Assembly: GCF_053078305.1 (NCBI RefSeq)
Contig: NZ_CP166879.1
Reading direction: 5' to 3' (one strand)
Length of the DNA stretch: 64,000 bases
This document shows, piece after piece, positions 18,001-21,000 of this stretch; the stretch's first letter is position 1, and each line of letters opens with the position of its first letter. Position numbers: made by a program.

Positions 18001-21000
18001 GCAGGAAGATTAAGAATCCGGCAGCTTCTGCCAGAACGGATATCAGGGCGAATTACTGGAGTCTGTTAGCGGGGCCTTCATGGCGGGTTAATCAGTACAT
18101 GAGTTTATATGCGATGGCAGGGATGGGCGTTGCTAAAGTTAGCGCTGACCTGAAAATTAAGGACAATATTAACAGTAGTGGCGGATTTTCTGAAAGCAAC
18201 AGCACGAAAAAAACCTCCCTTGCGTGGGCTGCAGGTGCACAGTTTAACCTGAATGAGAGTGTTACACTGGATGTGGCTTACGAAGGTTCCGGCTCTGGCG
18301 ACTGGCGCACGAGTGGCGTTACTGCTGGCATTGGCCTGAAATTCTGACCTGTATCCGGTAACCGTTTACTACCCGCTGTGATGGCGGGTTTTTTATTGCC
18401 CGTACAGGGCAAAAACCGTAAATTATGCGTGGGTGCCTTTCGGCTGATGGCTGGAGGGAGAACCTGAAGGCCTGATGTGGAAAGGCCCCGAGTCAACTTT
18501 AACGTTAACCCGAGGCCCTGACCGTACAACCTTCACAAGTAGTAGGTTAGCGCCTCTCCATTCAGGAGACAAGCGTTATGTCGCAAAAATCGCTCATCAC
18601 CGTCACAATTTGTATGACGGTTATCTTCACCATCTGGATGTTACACGGCTCGTTGTGTGAGTTCCGGCTGAATTTGTGGGGAGCGGAGTTTGCGGCGTTC
18701 TTACAGTGTAAGCAGTAGGAAAACCGCGACGGGGATGAAAGTCCCCGTCAACTGGTTGCTGAGGTTCAGCCGATATGGCACCCGTTTCAGGTGAGAGAAT
18801 GAACGATAAAATTCTCCGGTATATGCAGCGTGTGGTGAGAAATTCCCGCAACCCTGAATTTATGAATGAAGTTAAAGACGCCTGCCTTAAAAAGCAGGCG
18901 TTTTGTTTTGAGGCACCTGATGGCTTTCTGGTGCTGCGTTCTGTGCTCAGTGACGATGGTATCCCTTATGTTCTGGTGTTGCTGGGCGTGTGTACGGGGA
19001 GTAACAGCGTTGAGCGTTATCTGCCGGAGGTGAAGACATTAACCCGTCTGGCTGGCGGACGCTGGGCTGAATTTCATACGGCAAGGCGGGGATTTATCCG
19101 GCTGGGAAAACGTCTGGGCTTTGAGCGAATGCCGGATGATGAGGATGGCTTCATGGTGTTCAGGATAGCGGTCTGACTGCTACAGTTTTCATCATTGTGT
19201 TTAAACCAACATTGTAATTCACATTCTGACCCTGCTCCGGCAGGGTTTTTTGTTATCCAGGGGGCCATTATGGGTGGAAGTAAAGGCGGTGGTGATACCA
19301 AAGTAAAACCAACAGCAGCGCAAATAGCACAGGAAGAAGTGGCCTGGAAAGGGTGGCAGGATTATCAAAAAATCCTCCGTCCGGCAGAAGATAACTTCAT
19401 GGAAAAGGTCGATGACCTTAACAGTGAGCAGCAGTACGAAAATATCGCCGGTACAACAAATCTGGGATATCAGAAACAGTTTGGTGAAACGCGAAGGGAG
19501 CTGGCGGGTAATCTTGCTCAGTCCGGCGTTGACCCATCCAGTGGTCGTTTTAATGCGGTAATGGATGCAAATCAAAGCGACCAGGTGACCGGGCAGATTG
19601 ACACAACCACACGGGGACAGGTGTCGCAGGCAGATAAATATATTGCCGGGCTACAGGATGTTGCAGCTCTCGGTTCTGGTCAGAAGGCGGATGCGTTACA
19701 GAGTTTTAACTCTCTGGCAGACAGCAGTCTGGCAAAAGCTAAATCGGATGCACAGGCGGCGTTTACGAAACAGCAGGGTCGAGCCTCTCTTGTTGGCGCT
19801 GGTCTGGGTGCGGCAGGTGCATATGCGATGCATAAGGCTGGCGGTAGCGGAGGAAGTGGCGGTGCTAAAACACCTGGCACCGGCGCTAATGCCATTCAGT
19901 ATCAGGCTCAGAACTGGAGACTGTGATTATGGAGTACGGTAAATACGAAACACTTGCGAGATACGGTTATACCGGAGCAGCCCGCCCTCAGGGGGACTGG
20001 CAGACATCCGCAGCGCTGACCCGCCAGCAATACGACGACTGGCGCACCAGATATTTACCCCGTGTAGCAAGGCTGGCTGACCTTGGCGAGAACAACAGCC
20101 TGATGAATGCACAGCTTGCCCGGGTGGGCGGCCTTGCCACTTCCAGTCTCCGTACAGCGCAGATGGCGCAGGATAACCAGATGGCGAGATACGGGGTAAG
20201 CCGCCCGGATAATCCCGACAGTAATACGCTGGGGTTACGTAATGCCCTGGCAATAGCAGGTGCGAAAAATGGTATCCGTGAAGCCGAACAGGATCGCCAG
20301 ATGAATATTCTGACGGGGGCTTCTGCACCGGCAAGACAGAAACTGAGTGTTGGCGGACAACTGGTGGCAGCGTAAGGGGGCAATATGGGATACGGTTTAC
20401 TGGATATTGCAAATCAGTCGCGGCGTGAGGCATTACAGGGAATAAGTGACGCAGACAGACGACGTACAGAGATTGAGGCATCAAATAAACAACTGGCTGC
20501 TCAACAGAAAGCTCAGAAAAAACAGAATATCGGTACGGGCATTGGTACGGGGGCGGCTATTGGCGCATCCGTTGGTGGTCCTGTTGGCGCTGTTGCTGGT
20601 GCAGTAATTGGCGGCATTGCAGGCGCTTTGTTTTAAGGAGTGGTGAATGAGCGGATTTGCACAGGGGTTACTTGCCGGATTCAGCACTGTTGACCAGGCA
20701 ATGACCCGTCGTAAGGAGCTTGGTTTGCGAGAAGCACAGCTTGCTCAGCAACAGAAAAATAACGAGCGCGATTTTGAATTTGCGCAGTCTCAGTTTGAGC
20801 ACCGAAAAGAAAATGATCAGCGTACATATGATCTTAATGTCAGGAATGCCGATCGTGAATATGCGCTGAAAGAGAGGGAACACAAAGCAGCGCAGAATTA
20901 TCGAAATGCGTCACTTGGGCTATCTCAGCAGAGACTGCAACTGGAAAAATACAACCAGCGACGGCTTGAGTATAACGATATGCTGGCGCGCGATCAGCCT

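Follow-up and report, generated by a model that had tools for sequence, protein, structure and literature searches.

Does a small gene that lies between terminators, next to lom and hok, stand on its own, or does it belong to the phage module in which it is found, and what could its product do there? The question is raised by a gene for a protein of 125 amino acids (aa) at positions 18799..19176 of a 64,000-nucleotide stretch of contig NZ_CP166879.1 (NCBI RefSeq assembly GCF_053078305.1). This stretch, here called the window, is of the short-tailed Shiga-toxin (Stx) phage type (Traversvirus, Sepvirinae); coordinates are given in whole-window numbering, on the plus strand unless stated otherwise. 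Short-tailed Stx phages are of medical importance, and no assignment exists for most of their late genes. A sequence-only reading had taken the gene for a stand-alone moron with its own terminator, inserted alongside lom and hok and expressed in lysogeny for a function such as superinfection exclusion, defence or host modification. We found instead that it is a core late-operon gene of the tail/ejection module in 933W/Sp5-type podophages, and its product is predicted to have a GNAT fold. Overall, we consider it somewhat probable that this core late-operon accessory gene encodes a small non-virion GNAT-fold protein that acts on the ejection proteins.

Position of the gene in related phages

The position of the gene was followed in a tblastn survey of 95 loci. 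All of them were fetched via the 125-aa protein, so that presence of the gene is given by construction and the constancy of its position is what is tested. The slot was identical in 95 of 95 loci, down to 24% identity. Among the 51 loci with at least 90% identity (E. coli), lom was found in 50 and hok in all 51, the downstream order was kept in 48 and a terminator of the window type was present in 49. The six loci with 60-90% identity (Salmonella) all kept the downstream order and had neither lom nor hok; none had the window-type terminator by the strict pattern, a clearly homologous hairpin being present in five. In the 38 loci below 60% identity, lom, hok and the window-type terminator were likewise absent and the downstream order was kept in 33. 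Here the stop codon lies at most 20 nt from the start of the ORF76-like gene in 24 of the 38 (typically TGAGGTnnnnATG, with gaps ranging from 2 to 20 nt), and the remaining 14 carry an insert of 130-256 nt with a different hairpin in 12 of them; the Yersinia examples also have a small extra open reading frame (ORF).

Gene neighbourhoods were read in Pectobacterium, Yersinia ruckeri, Salmonella, one genome with 44% identity, a TARA ocean contig (24%), two metagenome contigs (30%) and one locus in which the tail-tip gene comes immediately before the homologue, the two overlapping by 4 nt. In all of these, a nozzle-like protein of ~540 aa, a Phage_Tail_Tip protein and 0-3 variable small genes precede the gene. 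On the downstream side, the common order comprises proteins of ~215-250, 127-160, 68-97 and 420-500 aa, followed by a giant LPD/MuF polyvalent or a P22-gp16-like protein; extra genes come after the homologue in the Salmonella locus L013 and in the marine contig L008. Close homologues (46-74% identity) were found in Enterobacterales only, and a profile search of 1.84 billion representative proteins returned 211 clusters, in which nearly all listed proteins have 105-165 aa.

The base composition of the gene (G+C 0.49-0.53) equals that of the core late genes, and the ORF72/73-lom block is AT-rich (0.30-0.46). A crude scan for sigma-70-like sites in 17300-19600 found none, with 3.6 expected, and missed the hok promoter too. 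The gene shares with the lambdoid morons (lom, bor, hok) that in the Stx lineage it sits between terminator-like structures among true morons, but it shows no sporadic distribution, no promoter in the crude scan and no atypical composition. It does have its own terminator, a feature confined to the E. coli and Salmonella lineages. Because the same slot is occupied in every relative examined, including phages without lom and hok, because the spacing to the next gene is tight in most distant relatives and because the G+C content is core-like, the gene is not a moron.

The direction of insertion is thus the reverse of the one proposed from the sequence: lom and hok were inserted beside the 125-aa gene and not vice versa. 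Insertions of true morons cluster at the junction 5' of the gene: lom, hok/sok and an adhesin. The autonomous look of the gene is an effect of these upstream insertions (lom, hok/sok and sometimes an Eib/YadA-like adhesin) together with the downstream terminator, an annotation trap in which neighbouring morons and terminators disguise a core gene. In place of "hypothetical moron", the label "conserved GNAT-fold gene of the ejection module" can now be used.

Several variants of the module were seen in single loci or small groups. In five loci (L032, L037, L051, L052 and L054), ~1.66 kb separate hok from the homologue of the 125-aa gene, and this interval holds a 398-aa ORF (L032 4693-5889) whose product, judged by eye from its sequence, has a signal peptide and a YadA/Eib-like C-terminal anchor. 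In another Stx-type locus (L027 6001-6806), there is no ORF76-like gene, and the homologue is followed after ~30 nt by the ORF77-like gene. A natural fusion of 256 aa (P0115; L009 8001-8771, L010 1450-2220) joins a DUF4376 domain (weak Pfam match) to the mini-GNAT domain, and separate DUF4376 proteins are encoded just 5' of the homologue in L006/L007 and L013. An IS21-like element with IstA-like (499 aa) and IstB-like (251 aa) ORFs, recognized by eye, splits the gene after residue 73 of the 125-aa form in L067 (6219-8890), as is also the case in E. coli 06-00048 (NZ_CP015229.1); since the element interrupts it, the gene can be lost in a resident prophage. At another junction of the module, between the ORF79-like and giant-protein genes, L014 carries a porin gene (8946-10121, minus strand; Porin_1/Porin_4) that resembles a moron.

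The predicted fold and the possible role of the protein

The ORF runs from ATG 18799 to TGA 19174-19176, and the gene is real as first read. An alternative in-frame ATG at 18775 yields the 133-aa form annotated in Sp5, 933W and phi24B. Since the homologues of Salmonella, Yersinia, Pectobacterium, Dickeya and Serratia start where the 125-aa form starts, and since a Shine-Dalgarno sequence, AGGTGAG (18789..18795; listed as ribosome-binding site in the P27 record), lies 3 nt before ATG 18799, 125 aa is the better call.

The gene is already catalogued but uncharacterized. Over the ~1.1 kb around it, the best-matching records of Stx phages, among them Sp5/VT2-Sakai, phi24B and P27, show 96-98% identity. 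Sp5 ORF75 (ECs1237), 933W ST933Wp67, phi24B vb_24B_43 and PHROG_610 are the same gene, with 96-100% protein identity, and are labelled hypothetical or of unknown function everywhere; ORF75 is listed as a hypothetical protein of 133 aa by Mondal et al. (2016, PMC5155283). The hidden Markov model of PHROG_610 (unknown function) matches the protein over its full length (E 2.4e-70, residues 1-125 on profile positions 1-124 of 124). The gene is carried by 419 of 5426 complete E. coli genomes and annotated as hypothetical in every case, and a literature search on ECs1237 and on phage GNAT plus ejection protein found no paper. In the records and papers found on ORF75 and its equivalents, the GNAT fold, the deep synteny and the internal hairpin are absent; the fold assignment, the deep synteny and an intragenic hairpin conserved at the nucleotide level are thus new, and so is the observation that podophage ejection blocks are repeatedly headed by a gene with a GNAT fold or an acyltransferase annotation.

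An AlphaFold2 model built from a 34-sequence alignment (pLDDT 91.1, pTM 0.80) gave the topology a1-a2-b-b-b-a3-b-a4-b-b. The reference GNAT fold is mixed alpha/beta, b1-a1-a2-b2-b3-b4-a3-b5-a4-b6-b7, and the predicted structure has this superfamily topology minus strand b1. Structure matches in BFVD were uncharacterized phage proteins and phage acetyltransferases. The protein is thus alpha/beta and not beta-rich as had been supposed, and the GNAT-like pattern suspected from the sequence stands at the level of the fold, with no match of a sequence profile. The best conserved part of the family is the RRGFIRLGKRLGF segment (residues 96-108), which is present as described, and the best conserved cluster, [T/S]94-x-R96-[K/R]97-G98-F99-x-R101...G107, falls at the b5/a4 junction. 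In GNAT proteins this junction is where the phosphates and the pantetheine of coenzyme A (CoA) are contacted.

A preprint on phi24B, combining cryo-electron microscopy and proteomics, lists the proteins by genome coordinates (2026; 10.64898/2026.04.10.717836). In its accessible part, the virion proteins detected are the nozzle (40807-42543), the central fibre (42429-43808), gp54 and Lom, and furthermore gp51, which is the ORF76-like protein (46349-47128, 523 peptide-spectrum matches, PSMs), gp50, an 86-aa protein, gp48 and the giant gp47 (10962 PSMs). All neighbouring products are thus present, and this part of the proteome includes no ORF ending near 46379, the site of the 125-aa gene. Because it is missing there, the protein is most likely non-structural; no homology to a structural virion protein was found either. 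In Sp5, ORF75 was deleted singly and in frame, with codon 3 of the 133-aa form fused to the last three codons, and it belongs neither to the nine genes found essential nor to the deletions that lowered lysogenization (two, ORF64 and ORF76) or raised the yield (three); ORF79 and ORF80 (the giant protein) were essential and deletion of ORF76 lowered infectivity (Mondal et al. 2016, PMC5155283). The gene is therefore dispensable in laboratory assays and on K-12.

Taking the conserved position, the predicted fold, purifying selection, the absence from the phi24B virion proteome and the dispensability known from the literature as the basis, we propose that the protein would be made in lytic growth together with the ejection proteins and would act on these in the producing cell. 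Its most likely action would be that of an acyl-CoA-dependent N-acyltransferase, alternatively that of a cofactor-binding assembly chaperone, and in either mode its contribution would not be required for plaques on E. coli K-12. The specific chemistry, as a model, is put forward tentatively. The best candidate substrate would be the ORF76-like protein (19270..19926, 218 aa, PHROG_611), encoded by the next conserved gene 3' of the 125-aa gene and the first of the putative ejection-protein block, because its gene begins at most 20 nt after the stop codon of the 125-aa gene's homologue in most distant relatives, because it is a virion component, because its deletion costs infectivity and because its N-terminus, Met-Gly-Lys-Gly-Gly, is conserved (M-G-(K/G)-G-G-...-S-x-E-(I/V)-K-E-T). 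With a small second residue the initiator Met can usually be removed, and such ends are substrates of N-terminal acetyltransferases.

The link between the function and the ejection apparatus is drawn chiefly because GNAT-fold or so annotated genes share this slot across podophage lineages, being predicted in two and annotated in a third. P22 gp14 (PF11039 DUF2824, PHROG_651 'head morphogenesis') is likewise a small protein encoded directly 5' of the ejection genes (14-7-20-16) in a podophage late operon; we predicted a GNAT fold for it as well, although a complete one with b1 and a C-terminal helix. DC1 and JC1 are Bcep22-like phages with portal, capsid and nozzle proteins related to those of 933W, and their gp63 (~145 aa) is annotated as an acyl-CoA N-acyltransferase. 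Its gene, which overlaps the one that follows, is located between a homologue of the 933W nozzle gene and genes for virion proteins, 5' of the gene for a giant DarB-like polyvalent protein; the JC1 authors called gp63 a moron. The fold and slot of gp14 together with the Bcep22-like annotation lead to the idea that, before they are packaged, the ejection proteins of podophages may be modified by an enzyme or assisted by a chaperone.

A number of observations weigh against this proposal. No GNAT link was obtained by sequence profile: Pfam and NCBIfam scans with the protein gave no match, no acetyltransferase family of Pfam was matched by any of 137 relatives, and against PDB sequences the single protein, a 34-sequence profile and a 137-sequence profile returned noise only. 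The b4-a3 loop reads C65-T-G-S-N-S70 where GNAT motif A, which binds the pyrophosphate, has Q/R-x-x-G-x-G/A; among the 137 relatives, Ser occupies position 1 in 64%, Gly occurs at position 4 in only 29%, and 63% have Ala, Gly or Ser at position 6, and the usual Tyr of a4 is replaced by Ala or Gly in the family. Since motif A is degenerate, the Gly at position 4 scarce and the Tyr replaced, the protein may, as judged from these residues, bind no CoA and be no catalyst. In the part of the phi24B proteome table that is accessible, the N-terminal peptide of gp51 is not seen and acetylation is not listed, which gives the proposed substrate no support. The absence of the 125-aa protein from this table has to be weighed against the chance that a small protein escapes proteomics. 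The parallels, finally, are analogies of fold (gp14) or annotation (DC1 gp63) together with position. Homology to gp14 found no support (no PF11039 match; hhalign not significant, whether run against a single sequence or an alignment of 20, with a probability of 2.4% between the two family alignments), nor did homology to DC1 gp63, which shows no significant similarity to the 125-aa family, has no Pfam match at E<=0.01 and is an acetyltransferase by annotation only. Peptides of phage L gp14 have been reported in virion preparations, where gp14 is listed as a P22 virion component, unlike the 125-aa protein in phi24B.

Several of these points would equally fit an inert GNAT-fold scaffold that has lost its cofactor chemistry and serves as a transient assembly or folding chaperone for ejection or tail-tip proteins, the role implied by the label 'head assembly/morphogenesis' of P22 gp14. 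Such a scaffold, which we regard as rather doubtful, would go along with the degenerate motif A and the missing canonical catalytic Tyr, with a GNAT signal that is not detectable by sequence, with the closely spaced ORF76-like gene, with the fusion of one relative to the tail-associated DUF4376 domain and with the lack of detection in virions, as far as the accessible proteome goes. It is harder to reconcile with the best conserved residues (R96, K/R97, G98, R101, G107) falling in the CoA-holding region of GNAT proteins and with the Sp5 ORF75 deletion, for which no assembly defect was reported (PMC5155283).

Quite unlikely is a host-directed or anti-defence acetyltransferase, acting on a host protein, a tRNA or an immune effector as AcrVA5 does on Cas12a and TacT on tRNA, with the location of the gene being incidental. 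AcrVA5 is a phage-encoded mini-GNAT anti-CRISPR, but it is only 16% identical to the 125-aa protein and its genomic context differs. The strictly conserved position close to the ejection genes across very distant phages and hosts contrasts with anti-defence genes, which are usually variable and mobile, and a place in the late operon is ill suited to countering immunity at entry. PADLOC, whose families cover defence and not anti-defence, gave no match even at E<=10, so that the defence function suggested earlier found no counterpart among known defence families.

The hairpin inside the gene and expression in lysogens

A terminator-like hairpin with an 11-bp stem and an 8-nt loop, followed by TTTTGTTTTG, is located within the gene at 18875..18914, in codons 26-38 (KDACLKKQAFCF). 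The element reads AAAGACGCCTGCC-TTAAAAAG-CAGGCGTTTT-GTTTTG, with a U-rich tract after the stem-loop, and encodes the residues K-D-A-C-L-K-K-Q-A-F-C-F. With a minimum free energy of -17.8 kcal/mol (z -3.96), it folds at least as well as the terminator 3' of the gene. Hairpin and tract are kept in relatives of 44-72% protein identity, with at most 1-2 changed positions in the stem and a variable loop; the marine member with 24% identity does not have the hairpin.

Codon usage was analysed in 23 genes, non-redundant at 92% nucleotide identity. Synonymous sites in codons 28-37 are frozen: GCC in 23/23, TGC in 23/23, AAG in 21/21, CAG in 23/23, GCG in 21/23, TTT in 23/23, TGC in 18/21 and TTT in 23/23. 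Equally conserved residues outside the hairpin (V45, L46, T82, R83, G86, G87, T94, R96, G98, R101) are encoded by 3-6 codons each. The mean fraction of the top codon is 0.97 in the hairpin (8 codons) versus 0.54 outside (41 codons; Mann-Whitney p 1.1e-5), and the most conserved 30-nt stretch of the gene begins at gene nt 79-83, with a column identity of 0.97 versus 0.72 overall. The region of the hairpin shows selection at the nucleotide level. Covariation is not seen in the stem, since the stem hardly varies.

We infer that the hairpin could act as an intrinsic terminator or attenuator where tail and ejection genes meet, which makes it, with its frozen synonymous sites, a candidate site of control within the late operon. 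Late transcription, being antiterminated, would pass through it, and in the prophage it would stop transcripts begun at the upstream moron promoters (lom or hok). If the hairpin works as a terminator, full-length expression of the 125-aa ORF in lysogens would not take place. This interpretation has to be set against the Sp5 deletion of ORF75, which took out the hairpin as well and for which no defect was reported (Mondal et al. 2016, PMC5155283); hence the hairpin is not essential in the laboratory.

Data on lysogens come from a CMAT screen of phi24B lysogen cultures, in which the clones CM19 and CM23 overlap the 5' part of the gene and also contain hok; the screen yielded numerous late structural genes as well (Riley et al. 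2012, PMC3342100). Because hok is included and many late genes were recovered, these clones do not show lysogenic expression of the 125-aa gene, and the data are ambiguous.

A gene transcribed in the prophage for superinfection exclusion, defence or host modification is thus very unlikely: its place in the Stx lineage 3' of the constitutive lom and hok promoters and 5' of a good terminator that is also kept in Salmonella relatives, and the overlap of CM19 and CM23 with its 5' part, would suit such a moron, but its distribution is not sporadic, its composition is not distinct, the crude scan found no promoter, the clones include hok and came with late structural genes that point to spontaneously induced cells (PMC3342100), the conserved internal terminator-like hairpin precedes two thirds of the ORF, an IS21 element disrupts the gene in at least one prophage, and the sequence, read directly, contains no signal peptide or membrane segment. 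Proteins that act on the envelope usually have one or the other. The sequence-only reading is partly supported: GNAT-like yes, moron no.

The proposal of an ejection-directed GNAT-fold protein can be extended to a joint reading, in which an active N-acyltransferase would modify the MGKGGG... N-terminus of a membrane-targeted ejection protein, unrelated GNAT-fold genes in the P22-like and Bcep22-like slot would do the same, and the frozen hairpin would be an antitermination-dependent checkpoint that silences the ejection and giant genes in prophages. We consider this combination unlikely. If true, the gene would be a phage counterpart of toxin-activating acyltransferases, which are encoded beside the pore-forming proteins they acylate, and podophage assembly would in general include a step so far overlooked, the covalent modification of ejection proteins.

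Flanking elements and the ejection block

The lom moron (17613..18395, with its own terminator at 18371-18389) lies outside the conserved module in the AT-rich block and is limited to E. coli-type loci (50/51 versus 0/44). The same limitation was found by tblastn with the window's hok for the hok/mok/sok-type toxin-antitoxin moron at 18431..18750 (hok 18578-18718). The hok 3' stem-loop (18727-18750, -21.4 kcal/mol, z -4.8 versus shuffled sequences) and the clean intrinsic terminator between the 125-aa gene and the ORF76-like gene (19228..19255; stem 19228-19247 plus T-run, -16.5 kcal/mol, z -3.4), which had been described as bracketing the gene, were both recovered. Homologues of the latter hairpin were found in 49/51 E. 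coli-type and 5/6 Salmonella-type loci, in Salmonella as AACCCTGCTCCGGCAGGGTTTTTT or AAACCTGCTTYGGCAGGTTTTTT, and in none where the two genes are 2-20 nt apart; by this pattern the terminator is specific to the E. coli and Salmonella lineages.

Overall, 17300-19600 contains 11 terminator-like sites, with 2.0 expected. The CCTGC...GCAGG core shared by the internal hairpin and the downstream terminator is not significant (2 matches in 64 kb versus 0.6 expected, reached in 12 of 100 shuffles), and Rfam matches to sX5 and BSnc120 in the region are far below the gathering scores and were dismissed as noise.

A 20-nt 'microRNA-size' RNA, 24B_1, has been published for phi24B (genome 45711-45692) in a paper that never mentions hok (PMC4426718). 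It maps to window positions 18487-18507 on the minus strand, with one extra T in the window, within the hok/mok/sok locus and antisense to the leader, just 3' of a mok-like ATG (18475) and 5' of hok (18578). The Rfam sok match at 18431-18588 is below threshold (E 4e-6). Judged by this location, 24B_1 is probably a fragment of a Sok-type antitoxin RNA.

The rest of the ejection block consists of the ORF77-, ORF78- and ORF79-like genes (19929..21912; 148, 83 and 421 aa), assigned by synteny, whose products were all detected in phi24B virions. It is followed by the gene for the giant polyvalent protein (21943..30366; LPD5, LPD1, MuF_C and LPD38 by Pfam), a putative ejected protein that, according to the accessible part of the preprint, is abundant in phi24B virions and absent from the cryo-electron microscopy map (10.64898/2026.04.10.717836). 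The ORF78-like protein (20385-20636, 83 aa), conserved in the module, has a Gly-zipper C-terminus and sub-threshold Pfam matches to YMGG and class IIc bacteriocins, and is labelled 'bacteriocin' in the 933W RefSeq record. In the same part of the preprint it is found at a low level in virion preparations, and its authors dismissed a 'bacteriocin homolog' as a contaminant (10.64898/2026.04.10.717836). It looks more like a small membrane-active ejection-module protein than a bacteriocin.

Several good coding-strand terminator-like hairpins with T-runs were found in the late region at 21945-21964 and at sites 6000, 8403, 8843 and 18371, which fits an antitermination-dependent late operon. The hairpin at 21945-21964 is located at the very start of the listed giant-gene ORF, the true start of which may lie further downstream.

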